Source: a virus. Taken from it: 64,000 bases of DNA. Of the stretch, positions 12,919-64,000 are shown piece by piece (position 1 is the stretch's first letter; each line of letters begins with the position of its first letter). The stretch lies in IMG/VR virus record IMGVR_UViG_3300046492_000199; one strand, written 5' to 3'. The notes under the pieces were generated by a model. That model was not told the origin of the DNA and made no database searches. It was given only the letters and a program-made list of their open reading frames with translations. A program made the translations under genes and the position numbers.

Positions 12919-13566
12919 ATGAATAAGTATTGGGGCAGCTTGAATTGGGGCACGATCCTCACAGTGATCACTTACGCCATCGGCTCAGTATTGGGTCTGG
13001 TTGATGTGCATAATTTTAACTATGTCGAATTTTTCGCGATCTGGACCAGCTATGTTTGCACCCTGATGTGCGTGTTCCAGACGAGGTGGAATTACCCGCT
13101 CGGCGCGGTTTCTACCATTCTCTACGCCATTCTATCTTATCAAGCCAATCTCCCCGCCGTTGGGCTGTTCAACATTCTCCTATCGATCAATTTGATTTAT
13201 GGCTGGTTCCGTTGGCGCAGCGATGATGTGACTCGGCCCGTTACCAATCCTAATGCGGCATGGTGGCTCGGATATGTCGGGATCGGGTTGGCCACTTATC
13301 TGATCCTAACCATTGTCAATGGTTACTTTGGCTACGACCAGACTTGGGTAGACGTTACTACAGCTGTAGTTTATGCCGTGGCTCAAGCCATGCTCGACAA
13401 CAAACATCGCACATCGTGGACCGTATTCTTTGTCCTCAATGTCTTGTCGATCTACCTTTATTTCAAGCAGGAAGCTTATTTCGTGGTTATCCAATACGTT
13501 TACTTCCTCGGAAATACACTTTATGGTCATTTTGAATGGCGTAAGTCAGAAGAAGTTTTCAATTAA
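12919..13566 (+). CDS. pnuC: PnuC-like nicotinamide riboside transporter
   Basis: Multi-TM protein with WNYPLG, YGWFRW, AQAML..K...SW..F motifs, located near NadR. Confidence 0.8.
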   Translation: MNKYWGSLNWGTILTVITYAIGSVLGLVDVHNFNYVEFFAIWTSYVCTLMCVFQTRWNYPLGAVSTILYAILSYQANLPAVGLFNILLSINLIYGWFRWRSDDVTRPVTNPNAAWWLGYVGIGLATYLILTIVNGYFGYDQTWVDVTTAVVYAVAQAMLDNKHRTSWTVFFVLNVLSIYLYFKQEAYFVVIQYVYFLGNTLYGHFEWRKSEEVFN

Positions 13567-13570
13567 ATCA

Positions 13571-13599
13571 TTGACAGTAGCCCCTAACGGGGCTACACT
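13571..13599 (+). promoter_or_regulatory. sigma70-like promoter whose spacer is a perfect hairpin
   Basis: TTGACA (13571-76), 17 nt, TACACT (13594-99). GTAGCCCC-TAAC-GGGGCTAC at 13577-13596. Confidence 0.65.
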
Positions 13600-14067
13600 G
13601 CTATCTAGATAAAGGAGGGTGTTTATGCTGAGATTTCTAATAATTTACGGCCTCGTCGCCTTTGGTACTTGGGCCGGATATGACAGAATTTATAGAGAGG
13701 CTTGCCCTTCGGAGAAGTTCTCATACGGTCCTGTCACGGCGGGAATTGCATGGCCCTTCTTCGCCGGTCTAGCCATTGCCAGCGCCACCACTGATAGGAT
13801 TTCCAATCCTGTCACTTGTGACAATAAATTTTAAAAGGAGGTTTTGATGCGTTATAAGAAATGGACCAGTGCATATCTTCTTAACGAAGCGTTGGAATCT
13901 CCCACGATGAAAGCAGAAGTCACGGTTAACGGCGAAACTATTGCTGTCAGCGCCGTGACAGAGCTTGAAACATTTGGCGTGACTTGGAAGCGTAACGGCG
14001 TTCTTGTCACGGAAGAAGATGCGGCAGAAGTTTTGGCTCGATGGGCCGTGGAAGGAGTTTAAATTTT

Positions 14068-14541
14068 ATGACGAGAGACGAAGTTAAAGCGAATCGAATC
14101 AAGTGGGCCAATTTCCTTCTCAATAAGAAGAGGAAGAAGGCTACCGGCATACTTGATAAGGGCGACGGTGCTAGATGCTGTTTGGGCCACGGCGCGTACT
14201 GCTTAGGCGTGTCTCGTCACAGACTTGGTGAAACGTATGTCACGAGTTTCGAGTATGGAGATGGGCGCGCAACATATTCCGCTCCTTCTGAATTGGTAGA
14301 CCTTGTCGGACTGTGGGACAGTGATGGCATGACTGAAGGCGAGGATTTAGTTATTGATGGTCTTAACTTTTCTTCACTAGCCTCTGCCAATGATGCTGAT
14401 AGGCATTATGCCTTTGAAACAGGCGTTGAAAGCAGAGAAATAAACATCACTCCTCAAATGATTGGGACATATCTCCTCACCGTGATCGAAGGCGGCGACG
14501 ATACTCCATTCCGCCCACTGTCGGAGTATCCCGAAGTATGA
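14068..14541 (+). CDS. hypothetical protein, CCLG-motif family (paralog of 19398-19739)
   Basis: W...L...K...G.L...DG.RCCLG motif shared with the later ORF. Confidence 0.55.
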   Translation: MTRDEVKANRIKWANFLLNKKRKKATGILDKGDGARCCLGHGAYCLGVSRHRLGETYVTSFEYGDGRATYSAPSELVDLVGLWDSDGMTEGEDLVIDGLNFSSLASANDADRHYAFETGVESREINITPQMIGTYLLTVIEGGDDTPFRPLSEYPEV

Positions 14542-15551
14542 CCACAACAGGACTATGCGTGATCAGTGGCCTCTTGCCGACACGTGGTCATCAATATCTA
14601 ATTGATTTTGGTTCTAAATTCGTGGATCGGCTCCATGTCATTGTCTGTATCAGGTCGTTTGAACCACGACTCACTCTGGATCGAGCCGAAGTTTTGGCAC
14701 AGCATTATGCTGGAACGAATGTAACGATCCACGAGCACTACGCCGATGATGCGCCTCAGAATGATGATGGCACGCCTGAGTTTTGGGACTATTGGTCCAA
14801 TCTCGTCAACAAAGCCATCACGAAGCGTAAAAAGATTGATTACTTCTTCGCCTCGGAAAAATACGGCGCGCGCTTCGCTGAAGCTCTTGGCATCACCTTT
14901 GTCCCGGTAGATATTGGCAGGGAAATCCTAAGCGTTACAGGGACAGGTGTCAGGAAAAATCTGGCTGAAAATTTTAAATACATTCTGCCTGAGTATCAAA
15001 ACCGTTTGGCCAAGACTGTGTGCCTCTACGGTCAAGAATCAGTAGGTAAAACCACTATGTCTAAGTGGCTCGCCAATAAGTTGGAAGGCCGTTGGATTCA
15101 CGAATGGGCCAGACCTTATCTTGAAGAAGTCGGCGCTGAGATAACGGATGAAAAAATGTTAAACATTGTGCGTGGCCAGTACGCAGCGATGATTTCCGCA
15201 CCTATGGCATTGTTTAATATAAGAGATACTGATCTCCTTTCCACTATTGGTTATTATAAAATCTATGGCGGAACTATGCCTGAAGAACTTATCCAAAAAT
15301 TTAACTTGACAAAGAGTGATCTTTATGTAATGTTAAATGACAATATCCCTTTCGAGCCTGATCCTTTGAGATACGGCGGTGATAAGAGGGAAAGTGAGAT
15401 GCAGTTCTGGATCGACCTGTTGGACGAATATGACTGCAAATATCATGTCGTGGACAGCACTGATATTAAAAAGCAACGCAAAGAAGTTGTAGAAGCTGTT
15501 TATGATTTTTTCACCGATCTACGCGAGATAGAGGAATTTATTCGTGACTGA
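14538..15551 (+). CDS. nadR: NadR-like bifunctional NMN adenylyltransferase / ribosylnicotinamide kinase
   Basis: N-terminal PTRGHQYLI (HxGH-type) and SEKYG. C-terminal P-loop GQESVGKTT, EWARPY, DTD, DPLRYGGDKRE. Confidence 0.85.
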   Translation: MTTTGLCVISGLLPTRGHQYLIDFGSKFVDRLHVIVCIRSFEPRLTLDRAEVLAQHYAGTNVTIHEHYADDAPQNDDGTPEFWDYWSNLVNKAITKRKKIDYFFASEKYGARFAEALGITFVPVDIGREILSVTGTGVRKNLAENFKYILPEYQNRLAKTVCLYGQESVGKTTMSKWLANKLEGRWIHEWARPYLEEVGAEITDEKMLNIVRGQYAAMISAPMALFNIRDTDLLSTIGYYKIYGGTMPEELIQKFNLTKSDLYVMLNDNIPFEPDPLRYGGDKRESEMQFWIDLLDEYDCKYHVVDSTDIKKQRKEVVEAVYDFFTDLREIEEFIRD

Positions 15552-25190: not shown

Positions 25191-25229
25191 AAGATTCCGC
25201 TTGACAAAAGCGGAATCTTCTGTTATAAG
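25191..25229 (+). promoter_or_regulatory. promoter of NAD salvage operon with perfect 12-bp palindrome centred on the -35 box
   Basis: AAGATTCCGCTT-GACAA-AAGCGGAATCTT (25191-25219). TTGACA (25201-06), 17 nt, TATAAG (25224-29). Confidence 0.7.
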
Positions 25230-25266
25230 TCGAATGTTAAATGAAATGGCAAGAGAAGGAGTTTCT

Positions 25267-26337
25267 ATGCCGGGTATTAAATACGACTACGGCGTCTTCA
25301 TTGGACGCTATGCACCAATGCACGACGGTCATTTTAAAGTAATGACCGAAGCACTTGAGCAATGCGATTATTTGATCGTAGTTTGCGGTTCCGATAATAT
25401 GGCGCGGAACACCAGAACCCCCTTCACAGCATTAGAGCGTCAACACATGATTCGTCTAGCCACGAATCATAATGAACGGATTCTGCTTACAAGTGTTGGC
25501 GATTATCCTTACAATGATAATCTCTGGCTCGCAGAGGTTCAGCGCGCCGTAAATGAAGCCATCGTGTTGAACGAAAAGCAGCACACAGTTAGTTACACGA
25601 ATAAAGGCTTTAAAGATTATAACTACAAAATAGCTTTGGCCGGAATGCACAAAGATGCCAGTAGTTTTTATCTGAAGAAGTTCCCTCAATACGAATCTAT
25701 TGCAGTGACGCCTGACATGATCGGGAGTGTTGTACTGAGTGCTACCGAAATCAGGACAAAACTTTTCACCGGAGCGTTTGATACGGTGAAGCACTTGCAT
25801 CCAGAGGTACAATCCCTAATTCTTGGTGACATGAATGCGCGCCCTGATATTTGGGACAGGCTTCGATCCGATTGGGAATATGAACTAGGCTACGAAGCGA
25901 AATGGGGCAAAGGTCCACACACCACGGTAGACAATGCTGTGATCCAAGCCGGTCATATCCTTCTCATCCAGAGAGGGAATGAGTATGGCGAAGGTCTATA
26001 TGCTCTTCCGGGTGGTTTTGTAAATCGTGAACGATTGCTTCACGCAGCTGTTCGAGAACTTCGCGAAGAGACTAAACTAAAAGTACCTGAGAAGGTTCTT
26101 TTTGGCTCATTAAAGGCTGTTAAGGTCTATGATGATCCATTTAGGAGCAATCGCAGTCACATCATCACTCACTGCCACAAATATGTGCTTGAAGATGTGA
26201 GCGCTGGCCTTCCCAAAGTCAAGGGTAGTGATGACGCCAAATGGGCAGGTTGGGTGCCTATTTCTGAACTAAAACAAATGCGTGGTCAGTTCTTTGAGGA
26301 CCATGAGAGTCTTATCCAGTCAATTTTAACAGCATAA
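25267..26337 (+). CDS. nadM: bifunctional NMN adenylyltransferase / Nudix ADP-ribose pyrophosphatase (NadM-Nudix)
   Basis: FIGRYAPMHDGH, RTPFTALER, SATEIR. Nudix box ALPGGFV...AAVRELREET, then DPFRSNRSHIIT, GSDDA. ATG 25267 follows AAGGAG. Confidence 0.9.
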   Translation: MPGIKYDYGVFIGRYAPMHDGHFKVMTEALEQCDYLIVVCGSDNMARNTRTPFTALERQHMIRLATNHNERILLTSVGDYPYNDNLWLAEVQRAVNEAIVLNEKQHTVSYTNKGFKDYNYKIALAGMHKDASSFYLKKFPQYESIAVTPDMIGSVVLSATEIRTKLFTGAFDTVKHLHPEVQSLILGDMNARPDIWDRLRSDWEYELGYEAKWGKGPHTTVDNAVIQAGHILLIQRGNEYGEGLYALPGGFVNRERLLHAAVRELREETKLKVPEKVLFGSLKAVKVYDDPFRSNRSHIITHCHKYVLEDVSAGLPKVKGSDDAKWAGWVPISELKQMRGQFFEDHESLIQSILTA

Positions 26338-27756
26338 ATGAAGGAGCTTCATATGTTTAAACGTAATCCCGTAATCTCAACAGACAGTTATAAAATTTCA
26401 CATTTTAAGCAGTATCCTCCCGGTACTACTGAAGTAAGCTCATATATTGAATCTCGCGGCGGGCCATTCAATAATGTTGTCTTCAATGGCCTCCAAGGCT
26501 TTATGATGGAGAAACTTGAAGGTCCAAGAATTACCATCGAAGACGTTTTCAACGCAGAAAAAGTCGCGGAAGCTCATGGCGAACCTTTCAACAGGGAAGG
26601 TTGGGAGCGTATTGTTTATAAGCACGGCGGCATGTACCCTGTAGAGATTCAAGCCCTTCCCGAAGGATTTGTGACACGTCCCGGCGTTCCTTTGGTACAA
26701 ATTAAGAACACTGATCCTGAACTTCCATGGCTGACTTCTTATCTGGAAACTTCTTTGCTGCGCTCGATATGGTTCCCGGTAACGGTAGCCTCTCTCAGCC
26801 GTTCTATCAAAGAAGTTATTTATGATAACCTGAAAGCGACTTCTGATAATCCAGAAGCCGAACTTCCGTTCAAGCTGCACGATTTTTCGGCTCGCGGCGT
26901 ATCTTCTCAAGAAAGTGCAGAGATTGGCTCAACTGCTCACCTCCTAAACTTTATGGGAACGGATAGCATTGAGGCAATTCCTTACTTGCAATACGTCTAC
27001 GGCTATGCAGACATGCCGGGATATAGCATTGCTGCATCCGAGCATAGCACTATCACTAGTTGGGGCAGGGAAAATGAAATTCTTGCCTACAGTAACATGA
27101 TTGAGCAATTCGGCGGCGAAGGAAAAATCTACGCCTGCGTCAGTGACAGTTACGATATCTATAAAGCTGTGACTGAAATGTGGGGCAATGTGCTCAAGGA
27201 AAAGATTATCGCTAAAGGTGGAACCTTGGTGATCAGGCCAGACAGCGGTGATCCTGTAGAAATCACGCTTGAAGTCGTGAAGCGATTGGATGACGCATTT
27301 GGCAGCACCATTAATTCTAAGGGTTACAAGGTTCTACATCCCTCGGTTAGAATTATTCAGGGTGATGGAATTAACATTGATTCTATTAAAGCGATAGGTG
27401 AAAACTTTAAAGCCAATGGATATAGTGGTTCCAATATAGCGTATGGTATGGGCGGCGCTCTTCTTCAGCGAATTGATCGTGACACGATGAAATTTGCTAT
27501 GAAGGCAAACGAAATTGTAGTCAATGGCGAACCTCGCGAAGTCTACAAAGACCCTGTTACTGACACTGGCAAGCGCTCCAAGCGAGGTAGACAAGCCGTT
27601 GTAGCTTCCCATCATGGACACATTGTGATCCCTGAGAAGGATTGGATAGGCACAGGAGAACATAACTTCCTACAGCCTGTGTTCCGAGACGGCGTTATTC
27701 TAAAGCGTTGGACTTGGGATGAAGCTAGGGCTTACGCCTCGTTAAACACTATGTGA
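26338..27756 (+). CDS. nadV: nicotinamide phosphoribosyltransferase (NAMPT/NadV)
   Basis: TDSYKISH, YIESRGG, LHDFSARG, AASEHST, VSDSYD, IRPDSGD, IIQGDG, YGMGGALLQ, KDPVTD.GKRSKRG. Confidence 0.92.
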   Translation: MKELHMFKRNPVISTDSYKISHFKQYPPGTTEVSSYIESRGGPFNNVVFNGLQGFMMEKLEGPRITIEDVFNAEKVAEAHGEPFNREGWERIVYKHGGMYPVEIQALPEGFVTRPGVPLVQIKNTDPELPWLTSYLETSLLRSIWFPVTVASLSRSIKEVIYDNLKATSDNPEAELPFKLHDFSARGVSSQESAEIGSTAHLLNFMGTDSIEAIPYLQYVYGYADMPGYSIAASEHSTITSWGRENEILAYSNMIEQFGGEGKIYACVSDSYDIYKAVTEMWGNVLKEKIIAKGGTLVIRPDSGDPVEITLEVVKRLDDAFGSTINSKGYKVLHPSVRIIQGDGINIDSIKAIGENFKANGYSGSNIAYGMGGALLQRIDRDTMKFAMKANEIVVNGEPREVYKDPVTDTGKRSKRGRQAVVASHHGHIVIPEKDWIGTGEHNFLQPVFRDGVILKRWTWDEARAYASLNTM

Positions 27757-28313: not shown

Positions 28314-28703
28314 TTATCCATAGACTTCTGTTAGGTTCCTGATTGCTGTTTTGATGTAGTTGTCGATCTTGGGCGCACGTTGTGGCAGTTCGGAAAGGCC
28401 GGTGCCTAGGCCGTCGAGAGGGATGATCAGTATGCCGTCAAGCGCGAGATGCTCATAGACCGGCTCCATATCAACGAGATAATGGTCTTCAAATAGATCG
28501 AAGTCATCATCGCTGAAAAAGCTGTTGTCATATTGAGAAGGGAGTTTCTTTGTCGCGATGCCAACGGCGTTAGGTTCGCCCCGCATTTCTTTTGCCTGTC
28601 CACCTAAGCCTTGACGCTTCAGGTTGTCTCCGAAGAGATATAGGACGTGGGGATTGGCTTGTAGATCGACGCGGTAAATAAATTTCTGGAAGATTACTGG
28701 CAT
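28314..28703 (-). CDS. macrodomain-like small protein (DUF7831-type)
   Basis: YLFGDN...GLGGQA.EMRGEPNAVGIATK and PLDGLGTG resemble the two Gly-rich loops of macrodomains. Confidence 0.5.
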   Translation of the reverse strand: MPVIFQKFIYRVDLQANPHVLYLFGDNLKRQGLGGQAKEMRGEPNAVGIATKKLPSQYDNSFFSDDDFDLFEDHYLVDMEPVYEHLALDGILIIPLDGLGTGLSELPQRAPKIDNYIKTAIRNLTEVYG

Positions 28704-56381: not shown

Positions 56382-56705
56382 AGATAAAGCCACTGCTACT
56401 GCCTTGATTGCTAATATTGTTTCTACTATTTTCGGGGTATTTCTAAACGCTTATGCCTTTGCCTATCTCTGGCTCTGGTTCATTGTACCACTAGGTGTTC
56501 CTGTCATTGGCATGGCTCACGCCCTTGGCATTATCGCTATCCGAGGCTTCTTATTCTACGGCTACGCCTTGGATAAGCATGAAAGTGCCGCGTCAGCGAC
56601 GGAAAAACTGTGGACCGCCACGGCGAAACGACTTACTGTTCCGCTTGTCAGTCTCACATTCGGATATATTTTCCACAGCTTTATGTAATTGGAAATTTTA
56701 ATTTT

Positions 56706-57224
56706 ATGGGTTATATTACAACATTTACGGGGATTGATTTTAATCCCCTCAAATTCACTGAAGACGATTTTGATATTGAAGATATTGCCCACGCCCTTTC
56801 GATGAATTGCCGGTGGTCCGGTCATTGTAGCGCGTTCTATAGCGTGGCACAGCACAGTGTTTATGTCGCTCGCTTCATGCAACGAAATCAAATGCTTGGT
56901 CTTCTTCATGACGGCAGTGAAGCTTATGGCTCTGACATGCCAACGCCGTTCAAGAATATTCTTCCAGACTTTAGAAAGCTGGAAGATAATATTCAAGCCA
57001 AAATTTATAAAAAATTTCTTGGACGTATTCCTACTGAAGAAGAGCACCGCTATCTCAAAATTTATGACAAGCTTCTGCTTGACTTCGAAGGCACAACGTT
57101 TATTAAACATTGGGGCGCTCCAATCGACGTTTCAATTATTAGGCAAGTAGATGAGAAGTTCCATCCTTGGACCCCGGCAGAGGCAAAGGAGAAGTTTCTT
57201 AAAGAGTTTAGAAAGTTGATTTAA
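56706..57224 (+). CDS. HD-domain 5'-deoxynucleotidase-like hydrolase (YfbR/YfdR type)
   Basis: IEDIAHALS..CR..GH...YSVAQHS, LLHDGSEAY..D.PTP.K, D..LL..E. Confidence 0.75.
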   Translation: MGYITTFTGIDFNPLKFTEDDFDIEDIAHALSMNCRWSGHCSAFYSVAQHSVYVARFMQRNQMLGLLHDGSEAYGSDMPTPFKNILPDFRKLEDNIQAKIYKKFLGRIPTEEEHRYLKIYDKLLLDFEGTTFIKHWGAPIDVSIIRQVDEKFHPWTPAEAKEKFLKEFRKLI

Positions 57225-57226
57225 TA

Positions 57227-58510
57227 ATGGACCTTTCTACGATTACTACTGTAGCAGAATCGCAGTTTCATATTTGGCTACAGGCTCAGCTTAAAAATGA
57301 TTTTCTCATAGCTGGCATTGGCACTGTCATGCTTTCAGGTGTGATGTACGCCTTGAAAAGCATTCCGGGTAAGGTTTGGGACGCGGTGTATCACAGATCC
57401 ACTATCACGATCAACGTGTTCAGCGATAATGATAACTTTGTTGATGTTGTGACTGAACTGAATGCAAACACCATAAACTTCTTATCCCGACAGAACATTC
57501 TAGACGGAGAGAAAATGAGCGTTGGCCTCGGTACGTCGTGGACCAGATTTCGTGGTCACATCGTTAAGCTGGATCGGCAGAAAGAGAAGTCTGATAGTAA
57601 GGATTTTAAGCAAGACCTGACCGTGACGCATTTCTTCACGTCGAAGAAAAAAGTATTAAAGCTTTACGAAGATTTCTTCGAAGAGCGTAAGGCGAAAAAT
57701 AAAGATAAAATAAAAATCTACTCTCTCGACAAGGAGTATGTACAGCATCTGAAAGATATGCCAAAGCGCAAGAGAGAAGGCGTGTTCATCTCTCCCGATA
57801 TTTTGGAACATATTGAGAAGAGAATTAGGTTCTTCCAAAACAATAGGGCGTGGTACGAGGATCGCGGCATCCCTTATAAGTATGCCATTCTTCTGCATGG
57901 TGTTCCCGGTACGGGTAAAACCACACTGGCGAAATACATCGCTTCCATCACTAATCGTCACGTCGTTATGGTAAGCCCTACCAGACTTCCGGGACTTGCT
58001 GTTGCTTTGAATAATATCTACGAAGATGATTACAGCAGTGAAAGGGTTAGAGCTTCTTATCTAGGTATTATGGAAGATATTGACACAGATAATATCACGG
58101 CTAAGCGAGACGAAGCGCCAGACGATGACGATGATGACGACTCATCCACTGGAAATAATAATGCCGGGAAGTTCAGCCTGATTACTCTTGCCGATCTACT
58201 GAACGCAATCGACGGCATTAATGCGCCTGAGAATTTCATACTGGTTGCAACTACTAACCACTTAGGTAAGCTCGATCCAGCCCTTTTCAGAAAGGGACGT
58301 TTCGATGACGTGATTGAGATTAAGCCATTGGAAACGCCTGAGATTATCCGCATGGTCAAGTTCTTTTTTGAGGTAGATGGCGCGACAGGCTTTGTCAAGG
58401 AGTATGAGCCGATCCCCGGTGCTGTGCTGCAAGACCTGATCCTGCAATATTATGACGAGGGCGTTGATAGAGTTATTGAGGTTTTGAATGAAAAATTTAG
58501 CAGAGTTTGA
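57227..58510 (+). CDS. Bcs1-like membrane AAA+ ATPase
   Basis: N-terminal TM segment; WY..RGIPYK...LLHG.PGTGKT, MEDID, DLLNAIDG, VATTNH..KLDPAL.R.GRFD. Confidence 0.75.
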   Translation: MDLSTITTVAESQFHIWLQAQLKNDFLIAGIGTVMLSGVMYALKSIPGKVWDAVYHRSTITINVFSDNDNFVDVVTELNANTINFLSRQNILDGEKMSVGLGTSWTRFRGHIVKLDRQKEKSDSKDFKQDLTVTHFFTSKKKVLKLYEDFFEERKAKNKDKIKIYSLDKEYVQHLKDMPKRKREGVFISPDILEHIEKRIRFFQNNRAWYEDRGIPYKYAILLHGVPGTGKTTLAKYIASITNRHVVMVSPTRLPGLAVALNNIYEDDYSSERVRASYLGIMEDIDTDNITAKRDEAPDDDDDDDSSTGNNNAGKFSLITLADLLNAIDGINAPENFILVATTNHLGKLDPALFRKGRFDDVIEIKPLETPEIIRMVKFFFEVDGATGFVKEYEPIPGAVLQDLILQYYDEGVDRVIEVLNEKFSRV

Positions 58511-59246
58511 TTATTTAAAAACGCTGGAAGATAGCGTCGAAACTTATATCCCGGCTGACCAATACATGGTGGCTCGATTGGATGGGCATGGGTTTCACAA
58601 CTTCACCAAGGGGCTGACTCGCCCATTCGACGCTACGCTACGTGAGACAATGGCAGATGTGACAAAGCTGTTGATGGAACGTTTCGGCGCGACTGAAAGT
58701 TATACCCAAAGCGATGAAATAACTTTGATCTGGCACCCTCGCCAGAACCGTAACGGAACTGGTTGGGTCGAGCATCCACACTCAGGTCGCGTCGTGAAGC
58801 TCGCAACTCTGATGGCAAGCTACTGTTCCACAGAATTTTATAAATTAATTCAAGGATATAAGGTCACAAACTATAATGGTTTTGACTGCCGTGTCTATGG
58901 CGGACCAGAGAATGTCGCGACAGATAGCAAGAGGTTCAGGTTCATTGATTGCGCCACAAACGCGTATCAGCAAGTCGCTCAATCGTTGTGGAGCCAGAAG
59001 CAGTTAAACGGTGTCAGTGTTCAGCAAATTAAAGCCATGCTGAAAGAACGCGATATCAATGTTTGGCACGCCTACGGCGATGACGCAATGCTGGGTGTTT
59101 ATTTTTATAAAGAAGAAATTGTTGTGCCTAGTTCGCGCGAATACGAACTTTTTGGCCATGTAGCGAAAATCATAAATAGAACAGGGCGTTACAGAATCGT
59201 TAGATCAAACGGCGCTGAAATGATGAAGAGGATTAAAGAAAATTAA
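58488..59246 (+). CDS. Thg1-like (tRNA-His guanylyltransferase / 3'-5' polymerase) protein
   Basis: RLDGHGFHNFT..L.RPFD, YTQSDEITL, GRVVKL, FDCRV. Confidence 0.85.
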   Translation: MKNLAEFDYLKTLEDSVETYIPADQYMVARLDGHGFHNFTKGLTRPFDATLRETMADVTKLLMERFGATESYTQSDEITLIWHPRQNRNGTGWVEHPHSGRVVKLATLMASYCSTEFYKLIQGYKVTNYNGFDCRVYGGPENVATDSKRFRFIDCATNAYQQVAQSLWSQKQLNGVSVQQIKAMLKERDINVWHAYGDDAMLGVYFYKEEIVVPSSREYELFGHVAKIINRTGRYRIVRSNGAEMMKRIKEN

Positions 59247-61725: not shown

Positions 61726-62166
61726 ATGACTTTACAAATTAAAAAATATGTGTTAGGATTTGCGTTCTGGCGCGGCTGTGTGGCTTTGATTTATAAAACC
61801 AAAGGGCCTTCCTATGTCATTTCGACATGGAACGGTATCGGCGGTAAGGTTGAAGAGCAAGATGATGGGTGGATCGAAGGCGCTATGATGCGCGAATTTG
61901 CCGAAGAAACTCATCTCGTCATCGGTCCCGATCTTTGGAACCACTTCGCTACTCAGCACGGAGAAGGTTACGAACTTAATTGCCTCGCCGCTACAATTCC
62001 AGATGATTTCGACGCGGCTAATATTTCAAACACTGAAGGTGATGGCGAAGTAGTTCAATGGTTCCAGATGCATAACCTGCCAAAGAACATTACACCAAAC
62101 CTTTCGTGGATGCTGCCTCTCGCCACGGATAAAACAACCGGCTACCTAGAGATTACTGAACGATGA
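61726..62166 (+). CDS. Nudix hydrolase
   Basis: WNGIGGKVE......AMMREFAEET Nudix box. Confidence 0.85.
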   Translation: MTLQIKKYVLGFAFWRGCVALIYKTKGPSYVISTWNGIGGKVEEQDDGWIEGAMMREFAEETHLVIGPDLWNHFATQHGEGYELNCLAATIPDDFDAANISNTEGDGEVVQWFQMHNLPKNITPNLSWMLPLATDKTTGYLEITER

Positions 62167-62620
62167 TTGTTTACGCCCTTGAACTGGAATATGAAGACGT
62201 GACAGGCGAAAGCCATTTCGAGTTACGTTCGCTGTACGAAACTCATGACGACGCGCTGTGGTACTGGACTTGGCACGTCTCTGACGCTGATAAAAAATCA
62301 ATTTATAAAAATTATCGAATTTCCAAATGGACAATCTAAAATGTACTCCATCAGATATTTAATTAAAAAAGAAGGTTCTCAGATTGCGTTCTGGAACCAC
62401 AACGCGAGTCATGATCTGGCCAAGGCGCTAGAGATTGCGTTCAAGTTTGGCACGGACCATAACAACACTGTCATGACCAATTCTGGTTGGATCAAAGAAG
62501 ACAAAGACCTTTACAGAATGAAGATTGTCTACGCCCTGACCCATCCCGAAGATACGACAAACTTCGCGCTGCATATCACGGTATCATTGGCCAGCGAAAC
62601 ACACAAATCAAACTTTTAAC

Positions 62621-64000
62621 GTGCCGAGGGTTCACAATAAGTATCACAACACCGCCCCTAACGGGGCCGTATATTGCGGTCGCGGCTCTAGGTTCGGCAA
62701 TCCCTTCGTCATAGGAAGTGACGGTGATAGGGATGAGGTGTGTGACAAGTTTGAAAAATTAATTCTTCCTACTCTCGATGTATCAGATTTGAAAGGCAAA
62801 GATTTGGTCTGCTTCTGCAAACCGAAACGTTGCCACTGTGATGCTATTCTATTAAAAGCTAATAAAGAAGAAAAAATGAAACTTAGAACAGCGCTATTCG
62901 ATATTGAAGGTGATGGACTTTTAAAAAGTAAGTTCATTAAATATGAAGACGAACTAGTTGAAATTCCTCCCATGACAAAGATTCATTGTCTTTGCATCAC
63001 GGAATTCGAGACAGGTAGAAAATTTAAATTTGTTGGTCTGAAGGAAATCGAAAAGGGTGTTAAGCTTCTTGAACAAGCTGAGATGGTCGTGGGCCATAAC
63101 ATTCTGGACTTCGACTTAAGAGCGATAGCTAAAGTTTTCCCATGGTTTGAATTCCGTGGCAAGGTTCGCGATACGCTTGTCATGACACGTCTGATGTTCT
63201 CACACCAGAAAGAATTGGATTTTCGCCTCCACGAACGCGATAGACTTCCGTCTAAATTCATCGGTCGTCACAGCTTGGATAGTTGGGGCTACAGAATTGG
63301 GAAGTGGAAAGGCGACTATTCGGAACAGAAAGAAAAGGAAGCAAAAGCTCTTGGAATTACTAATCCTCTTGCAATACATATGCATGTATGGGGAACCTAC
63401 AATGAGGAAATGGGTGAGTATTGCGAAAACGACGTTGACGTTACTGAAGAACTTTGGAAGATGCTCATTGAGCTTAACTATCCAGAGTTTCCGATCATCT
63501 TCGAACACGAAATCGCGGATCGACTGATCCAGCAAGAGGATAACGGATTCCCATTCGACACCGACGCGGCTAACAAACTCAGACTAGAGCTTGAAAAGTT
63601 CAGGGAAATTATCAGCCTAGAGTGTGAAGAGAAGTTCCCCGGCAGAATGGAACCTCAGAAACATGTCACATATAGTCAGCTGAGAGAAGATTTCAATGGT
63701 GTGAATTGGGACGCGGTTAATAACATTGAACTTGAAAATTCGGTCTACGAAATGTTGGCCAATCATCCAAGCGATAAGAAGACGCCGCAAATCATGATCC
63801 CTAAAAGGTCCATCAATTACAAGGATGTGACTAAAGGCGATAGAACAGCTGGTGCCCCTTATACCCCGGTTTATTACAAAGAGTTCAATCCCGGATCGCG
63901 TCAACAGGTCGCGGAACGTTTGATCGAACTTGGCTGGAAGCCTGAAGAGTTTACGGAGAAGGGTCAGCCGCAGGTAAACGAAATCACACTCAAACACGCC
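62621..64000 (+). CDS. DUF4326-like domain in frame with T7-like family A DNA polymerase (partial, runs off right edge)
   Basis: Manual translation from GTG 62621: VYCGRGSRFGNPF..G..GDRDEVCDKF...LKGKDLVCFCKPKRCHCD. No stop follows before ATG 62876: FDIEGDGLL (ExoI), GHNILDFD (ExoII), DTLV.TRL, GRHSLDSWGYRIG..KG, YCENDV (ExoIII), FNPGSRQQV...GWKP..FTEKGQP.V. Confidence 0.85.
   Translation, partial: MPRVHNKYHNTAPNGAVYCGRGSRFGNPFVIGSDGDRDEVCDKFEKLILPTLDVSDLKGKDLVCFCKPKRCHCDAILLKANKEEKMKLRTALFDIEGDGLLKSKFIKYEDELVEIPPMTKIHCLCITEFETGRKFKFVGLKEIEKGVKLLEQAEMVVGHNILDFDLRAIAKVFPWFEFRGKVRDTLVMTRLMFSHQKELDFRLHERDRLPSKFIGRHSLDSWGYRIGKWKGDYSEQKEKEAKALGITNPLAIHMHVWGTYNEEMGEYCENDVDVTEELWKMLIELNYPEFPIIFEHEIADRLIQQEDNGFPFDTDAANKLRLELEKFREIISLECEEKFPGRMEPQKHVTYSQLREDFNGVNWDAVNNIELENSVYEMLANHPSDKKTPQIMIPKRSINYKDVTKGDRTAGAPYTPVYYKEFNPGSRQQVAERLIELGWKPEEFTEKGQPQVNEITLKHA

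Follow-up and report, generated by a model that had tools for sequence, protein, structure and literature searches.

What is a DUF4326 domain doing at the front of a replicative DNA polymerase? The question is raised by the last part of the viral DNA analysed here (IMG/VR record IMGVR_UViG_3300046492_000199, 64,000 nucleotides (nt), hereafter the window), where a single open reading frame (ORF) beginning with GTG at position 62621 encodes DUF4326 and, directly behind it, the 3'-5' exonuclease of a T7-like family A polymerase (PolA). The initial annotation had read this as an in-frame fusion, and the present analysis bears it out: the frame is free of stops for 460 codons, up to the end of the window, and both parts are identified by profile matches. 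The product is one polypeptide of ~790 amino acids (aa), in which DUF4326 is followed by a very short linker and a T7-like replicative DNA polymerase. The elements are as follows.

62621..64000, + strand: fused DUF4326-PolA ORF, the first 460 of ~790 codons; it exits the window, and its full length is taken from the proteins P0176 and P0151.
62621..62875, + strand: DUF4326 domain, residues 1-85 (85 codons), placed by Pfam match, AlphaFold2 model and a ratio of non-synonymous to synonymous change (pN/pS) of ~0.15.
62876..64000, + strand: T7-like family A polymerase, comprising the 3'-5' exonuclease and the start of the polymerase domain, placed by phrog_17 match and motifs.

Over residues 8-77, Pfam DUF4326 (PF14216) scores 69.2-72.8 bits (cut-off 25; E 4e-20 to 5e-19); the match spans profile positions 4-81 of 82 and lies above the curated gathering score. 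The phrog_17 family, annotated as 'DNA polymerase', matches residues 83-445 of the fused protein (E 7e-50). The exonuclease motifs FDIEGDG, GHNILDFD and YCENDVDV are intact, and in an alignment of 60 relatives the residues D94/E96 of Exo I, N160/D165 of Exo II and Y267/D271 of Exo III are kept. The window ends before polymerase motifs A, B and C; they can be read in P0176, the public gene call of the full-length product encoded here, which has DLSGIELR, KTFIYATLYGAG and VHDE and carries a precomputed match to Pfam DNA_pol_A (PF00476). P0176 is annotated with 751 aa from a GTG at 62738 and omits the first 39 conserved codons, including the GRG/GNP motif. Because this start falls 39 codons inside DUF4326, the full ORF amounts to ~790 aa. 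In three pairwise comparisons, pN/pS was 0.12-0.16 in both halves of the domain, the 39 omitted codons included, and the fusion is under purifying selection. Two features bear on the start.

62738..62740, + strand: internal in-frame GTG, start of the public gene call P0176, cutting into DUF4326.
62245..62619, + strand: small upstream ORF, conserved from MYSIRYL onwards, whose stop (62617-62619) ends 1 nt before GTG 62621.

This close spacing, together with the separate DUF4326 gene of Erythrobacter phage XM05, which begins at the position equivalent to 62621 (MPKVYN vs MPRVHN), supports 62621 as the start. Translation from it is probably coupled to that of the upstream ORF. A strong Shine-Dalgarno sequence was found at neither GTG 62621 nor ATG 62876, and a promoter and terminator scan gave none within the fused ORF and no excess over shuffled sequences.

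An artefact of sequencing or assembly, in which a stop was missed or a frameshift error joined two genes at the junction, would dispose of the question altogether. A stop at this place, which the initial annotation had named as evidence against a fusion, was looked for in independent contigs from other samples. A contig from a rhizosphere run (X3) spans 62400-62994 with 0 differences, and a 6.3-kb contig from another rhizosphere run (X4) spans 62400-63200 with 8 substitutions and no gap; the junction is free of indels in both and the fusion is kept. Ten distinct fused homologues at 41-89% identity share the architecture, among them the protein of an isolated and completely sequenced phage, Sphingobium phage Lacusarx. 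With the Lacusarx coding sequence (CDS), the fused homologues and the indel-free contigs in hand, the artefact was rejected, its probability being practically negligible.

The junction itself contains a potential second start.

62876..62878, + strand: in-frame junction ATG, possible start of a short polymerase, with an A-rich stretch upstream and a weak Shine-Dalgarno sequence.

In a relative with a broken domain (L005, described below), a gene starts in a context identical to that of ATG 62876, and the polymerase is encoded separately, as a stand-alone protein of 697 aa. A methionine at or near the junction is found in the window and in P0151, P0152 and P0190. It is missing in five of the ten fused relatives (P0153, P0161, P0167, P0170 and P0239), in which the polymerase is therefore the fused protein. 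Judging from these junctions, a short polymerase from ATG 62876 is possible in the window, and a short form with an internal start is not general among the fused phages.

To see how the fusion is distributed, a maximum-likelihood tree was built from 75 PolA sequences from which the DUF4326 domain had been removed, and the DNA of unfused neighbours was translated in six frames and searched with the DUF4326 hidden Markov model (HMM). The comparison of fused and split states that the initial annotation had proposed gave ten fused relatives, and others in which the domain is split off, decayed or absent. The fused relatives are the Lacusarx polA and nine further proteins, of 768-906 aa (P0151, P0152, P0153, P0161, P0166, P0167, P0170, P0190 and P0239); among IMG/VR contigs, L004 (89% identical) and L006 (63%) carry the fusion. 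On the tree, the ten fall into two well-supported clades, making up 5 of 11 rows in the clade of the window and 5 of 22 in that of Lacusarx, and the fused state requires at least 8 gains or losses.

Two split arrangements were seen. In L028, the sister of Lacusarx, an uncalled DUF4326 ORF ends with a TGA that overlaps the TTG start of polA (TTGA), so that the two adjacent genes are translationally coupled. In Erythrobacter phages XM05 and vB_EliS-L02 (L02), a separate DUF4326 gene with a cysteine-rich tail lies directly upstream of polA. A cysteine-rich, zinc-ribbon-like segment (CxCH...CxxC...CxxC) accompanies DUF4326 more widely in the Lacusarx/Erythrobacter clade: it is C-terminal on the split protein of XM05 and L02 (L002:4001-4444 and L003:3935-4429) and forms a separate 77-aa ORF just upstream in L028 (L028:1524-1757).

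In the case of L005 (IMGVR_UViG_3300046660_000208; polymerase 86% identical), the domain is decayed. Two palindromic insertions, one of 29 nt with a perfect 14-bp inverted repeat and one of 32 nt, break it and together shift the frame by their sum of 61 nt (L005:5716-6781), and the ATG that opens MKLRT in the window is, in L005, the exact insertion point of a 249-aa N6/N4 DNA methyltransferase gene. A variant of this type is also present in the public run X6 (aligned to 62688-62817 of the window). No copy of the palindromic inserts was found in the window or elsewhere in the 14-kb L005 locus; small mobile hairpins are one candidate for their nature, something else being another. Finally, no DUF4326 lies within 2-3 kb in five relatives (L024, L025, L026, L027 and L029), and in L027 the slot upstream of polA is filled by a methyltransferase. 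Since these relatives have polA and lack DUF4326, the polymerase works without the domain. As a whole, DUF4326 is an optional, dispensable add-on, and the slot upstream of polA is variable.

Automatic annotation under-reports the fusion, because the start of P0176 truncates the domain and the split ORF of L028 was left uncalled. As a separate observation on the same clade, several of its polymerases carry an intein (Hint module) in motif B, between KTFIYA and TLYGAG (P0153, L006:5998-8718, as well as P0187 and P0189), which measures ~110 aa in P0153.

Is the polymerase the only partner of this kind? A phmmer search of 1.84 billion cluster representatives gave 5,529 DUF4326 matches at E <= 1e-3; the family occurs in phages, archaeal viruses and giant viruses. 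Most members are stand-alone proteins of 90-150 aa, and among the nearest relatives the domain is nearly always N-terminal where it is fused. One fusion (P0154, 785 aa) places DUF4326 on a second, non-orthologous polymerase lineage, phrog_1252, annotated relatives of which lack the domain. This polymerase is of the Rhizobium-P106B/Klebsiella-Carvaje type, with a GLYPS motif and no Pfam PolA match, and a sequence search of the PDB with it gave no useful match. Another (P0157, 208 aa) joins DUF4326 to a T4 gp62-like clamp-loader subunit (clamp loader A subunit). Further partners are a 5'-3' exonuclease/flap endonuclease (FEN; P0035), uracil-DNA glycosylase (P0015 and P0156) and Pif1 helicase (P0073), and outside replication and repair proteins we found Macro, YpsA, cpYpsA, YAcAr, DprA-like, NADAR, GNAT and DUF7831. 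P0011 (352 aa) consists of three DUF4326 domains in tandem. The association of DUF4326 with NADAR and SLOG genes, which the initial annotation had stated, is confirmed by the literature (PMC7824862, PMC9503650) and by the fusions to YpsA, cpYpsA/YAcAr, Macro and NADAR. In their survey of jumbo phages and giant viruses, Iyer, Burroughs and Aravind (2021/2022, Viruses; PMC7824862, PMC9503650) describe DUF4326 as a predicted rhodanese-phosphatase-like enzyme; the 2022 paper places it in the rhodanese-phosphatase superfamily with a predicted action on terminal phosphates on ribose, and a detailed analysis is cited as 'in preparation'. Our survey of DUF4326 fusions reproduces their statement. The PolA fusion is named in the text of neither paper.

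The domain was modelled with AlphaFold2 from 117 homologues. The model, which is very confident, is a three-stranded alpha/beta unit (predicted local distance difference test (pLDDT) 97.1, predicted template modelling score (pTM) 0.86), with predicted strands at 4-6 and 62-64 and helices at 37-51 and 72-81. Invariant or nearly so in the 117 sequences are N6, G20-R21, G26-N27-P28, R37 and C64-x-C66-x-P68-x-x-C71-H72, and the family-wide residues G20, R21, G26, N27, P28, R37, C64, C66, P68, C71 and H72 are all present in the window protein. Two segments stand out.

62678..62704, + strand: G20-R21-G...G26-N27-P28 motif, invariant or nearly so in the 117 sequences.
62810..62842, + strand: C64-x-C66-x-P68-x-x-C71-H72-x-D74 on a strand-loop-helix, candidate active or metal site by conservation and model.

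In the model, the cysteine motif sits on a strand-loop-helix with the geometry of the P-loop of protein tyrosine phosphatases (PTP). An exhaustive structural scan with VIA-align gave as best match the C-terminal domain (CTD) of RapZ (Z 4.5), and about 30 of the 42 rows were cysteine PTPs or dual-specificity phosphatases (DUSP) at Z 2.2-3.4; NADAR structures reached Z 2.4-2.6 only. Matches in BFVD were other viral DUF4326 proteins only, sequence searches of the PDB with the domain and its profile gave nothing meaningful, and an HMM search of the fused protein for Macro and NADAR had no match at E <= 1. These fold matches of the model agree weakly in direction with the published rhodanese-phosphatase assignment and do not establish it.

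The geometry of the fusion is also of interest. The last DUF4326 helix (...KAN) is followed after only 11-16 residues by the Exo I motif FDxExDG, and this short linker is conserved. T7-type polymerases have their Exo I acidic residues at the very N-terminus. Therefore DUF4326 would be held right beside the proofreading site for the primer 3' end, on a tether of about ten (8-10) residues. We tentatively lean towards DUF4326 being an optional, replisome-tethered enzymatic module whose substrate is a (deoxy)ribose-phosphate-type group, either on DNA ends or on nucleotides. The domain would be an accessory enzyme brought to the replication fork and would act, after the published prediction, as a cysteine-dependent rhodanese/PTP-like phosphoesterase on a phosphate attached to ribose or deoxyribose. 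With its tether beside the proofreading site, where the primer 3' end is received, its most likely task would be to clear a blocking group so that synthesis can continue. Candidate groups, on DNA ends or on nucleotides, would be a 3'-phosphate, an abasic sugar-phosphate remnant or an ADP-ribose-derived adduct. The patchy distribution suggests a host-specific benefit in counter-defence or repair and not a core role in replication. A more general formulation, in which DUF4326 is a portable 'unblocking' module brought to the fork against host-defence blocks on polymerases, clamp loaders, FEN, uracil-DNA glycosylases and helicases alike, is speculative and we regard it as rather improbable.

By gene order and protein similarity, the window belongs to a CbK/Lacusarx-like long-headed siphophage: an A1-like 'DNA transfer protein', a Nudix gene, small ORFs, polA and an RNase_T-like exonuclease follow one another, and related contigs measure 165-188 kb. 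Public runs that contain the window sequence are rhizosphere metagenomes, and a near-identity DNA search of the phage collection with the window gave no match. The relevant neighbours are these.

61726..62166, + strand: Nudix hydrolase, two genes upstream of the fused ORF and syntenic in relatives.
12919-15548 and 25201-27753: NAD+ salvage genes with Pfam matches to a PnuC-type nicotinamide mononucleotide transporter, a NadR-like AAA_28 kinase, NadM-Nudix and NAMPT.
28317..28703, - strand: stand-alone DUF7831 gene of 129 aa beside the NAMPT/NadM-Nudix operon (Pfam DUF7831, E 1e-43).

Within the salvage set, a NadM-type adenylyltransferase is fused to Nudix according to Pfam. The DUF7831 model is confident (pLDDT 93), and its top structural matches are weak ones to macrodomains (TARG1 Z 5.2, DarG Z 5.0, Poa1p Z 4.7). 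A classification of this 129-aa gene as a clear macrodomain was downgraded accordingly, as Pfam assigns it to DUF7831 and the macro-like fold matches are weak only. The family is mostly from phages, is conserved in CbK-like phages and roseophages, and is fused to DUF4326 in P0177. It occurs in relatives both with and without the DUF4326 fusion, and its co-occurrence with DUF4326 therefore adds little. An hhalign comparison of DUF4326 with DUF7831 indicated no relationship (probability 0.1), and DUF7831 was mentioned nowhere in a literature search. Altogether, the phage is clearly invested in NAD+/ADP-ribose conflicts, which is compatible with an ADP-ribose-related role of DUF4326 and is no proof of one. 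The replication region contains, in addition, a Thg1-family gene (tRNA-His guanylyltransferase, a 3'-5' polymerase) at 58488-59243 (+), three genes upstream of the fused polymerase and also present at L025:1-124. Immediately ahead of it are a YfbR-like 5'-deoxynucleotidase (56610-57221) and a BCS1-like AAA ATPase (57227-58507).

How does the enzymatic reading stand against the evidence? Several points weigh against it, the main counterweight to confidence in the chemistry being that the fold evidence is weak and the activity predicted only. The chemistry is a prediction across the whole DUF4326 family; all VIA-align Z values lie below the tool's stated noise level, and Foldseek found no match for the DUF4326 model in the PDB. 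The window domain reads C64-X5-R70, but R70 is variable in the family and in the fused relatives and it is P68 that is invariant. From their pattern, the three cysteines and one histidine could equally be a structural zinc site. Concerning the tether, relatives replicate without DUF4326, the slot upstream of polA holds unrelated genes in relatives, DNA methyltransferases included, and proximity alone could have produced the fusions. This last point leads to an explanation by neighbourhood, according to which an independent accessory gene upstream of polA, for example one for counter-defence, lost its stop without any functional coupling, so that the polymerase is the same with or without the domain and may also start at the internal ATG. 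The variable slot (methyltransferase in L005 and L027, other small ORFs in L024 and L029), the frequent interconversion of fused, split and lost states on the PolA tree and the mostly stand-alone occurrence of the family fit such a history, as do stand-alone DUF4326 genes that are 70% identical to the window domain and lie in unrelated temperate-phage contexts (L013 and L018). Chance adjacency can hardly account, however, for independent N-terminal fusions to the second polymerase lineage, the clamp loader, FEN, uracil-DNA glycosylase and Pif1. These recurrent fusions to different replisome and repair proteins are therefore the main argument against mere adjacency, and the neighbourhood of polA is moreover retained even where the genes are split (L028, XM05 and L02), the short linker is conserved and half of the fused forms lack a junction methionine. 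We consider this explanation unlikely.

Equally unlikely, in our estimate, is a non-catalytic module, that is, a small zinc-stabilised domain that has DNA, a nucleotide, ADP-ribose or a protein of host or phage as its ligand and so recruits or regulates replisome enzymes. The C-x-C-x4-C-H cluster with an invariant proline in its loop, the small size of ~80 residues, the lack of a significant match to any enzyme structure and the zinc-ribbon-like tail added in Erythrobacter phages would suit it, and the RapZ-CTD, the top weak match, binds RNA and sugar-phosphate. But N6, R21, N27, R37 and H72, all polar and invariant, are in keeping with an active site or a pocket for phosphate, C71 and H72 as direct neighbours would make an unusual ligand pair for one metal ion, and most of the fusion partners are enzymes that act one after another on (deoxy)ribose-phosphate substrates. 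The initial annotation had gone further and proposed that the domain may serve in lesion removal or sensing, acting on DarT-type ADP-ribose adducts on the template as a built-in escape from DarTG. The fusions of DUF4326 to Macro and NADAR domains elsewhere, the NAD+ salvage genes and a DUF7831 protein with weak DarG/TARG1 matches (Z ~5) point in this direction. Against it, DUF4326 is without homology to Macro or NADAR by HMM and structure (Z <= 2.6), in the Macro and NADAR fusions those partners would carry out the de-ADP-ribosylation and leave a different step to DUF4326, and no DarT context was found. We regard this proposal as very improbable.

Parts of the picture were on record before. 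GenBank has contained the DUF4326-polA architecture since 2017, in the form of Lacusarx polA, and fusion of DUF4326 to replication components as a general class was noted in 2021. What is new is that across the clade the domain occurs fused, split off, decayed or lost, that it has independently joined a second polymerase lineage and a clamp loader, that its tether to the proofreading site is short, and that the public gene call places the start wrongly. The polymerase fusion offers a concrete handle on the function of the large DUF4326 family: Lacusarx and Sphingobium sp. IP1 are a cultured phage-host pair that carries it, and close relatives provide natural controls, as the domain is fused in some and split off, decayed or absent in others. 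If the domain cleans DNA ends or removes ADP-ribose-derived adducts, repair or counter-defence attached to the replisome in this way would be a new class of activity; should it be a binding module only, the result would be a routine note on domain architecture.

Comparison with known systems puts the fusion in context. DarG/TARG1 macrodomains were proposed as a functional analogy only: they have no sequence or significant fold similarity to DUF4326, and the weakly macro-like protein of the window is the separate DUF7831 gene. Cysteine PTP/DUSP and rhodanese enzymes have a strand-loop-helix with a cysteine at the strand end, as DUF4326 does; the structural matches to them are consistent but weak (Z 2.2-3.4), and the window sequence reads C-X5-R. 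DUF4326 differs from PTP/DUSP in that the arginine is not conserved, the loop has an invariant proline and there are two more cysteines and a histidine; it is about half the size of a DUSP and has no sequence-level match. Bacterial Pol I likewise carries an accessory DNA-processing domain (5'-3' exonuclease, FEN) N-terminal to a family A polymerase, and DUF4326 is itself fused to a FEN domain in P0035, yet the two domains are unrelated in fold and motifs and DUF4326 has no nuclease signature. T7 gp5 is, like the window protein, a family A polymerase with an N-terminal 3'-5' exonuclease, but it has no domain ahead of the exonuclease. In both proteins the polymerase module begins only a few residues before the acidic residues of Exo I. 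The fusions of Iyer et al. involve the same Pfam domain as the window and differ in that no PolA fusion is named among them. In Lacusarx, which has the same architecture, the fusion is annotated as a single CDS (gp059, YP_009600788, 824 aa), as DNA polymerase I only; the extra DUF4326 domain is unmentioned in the Lacusarx and L02 phage papers. Lacusarx polA differs from the window in its longer N-terminus and the lack of a junction methionine, and the host has 60% GC compared with 44% in the window. Identity is 41% in PolA and 61% in DUF4326. Like the window protein, gp059 consists of an N-terminal DUF4326 (aa 26-94) and a T7-like PolA, and it lies in the same neighbourhood of an A1-like 'DNA transfer protein', polA and an exonuclease subunit.

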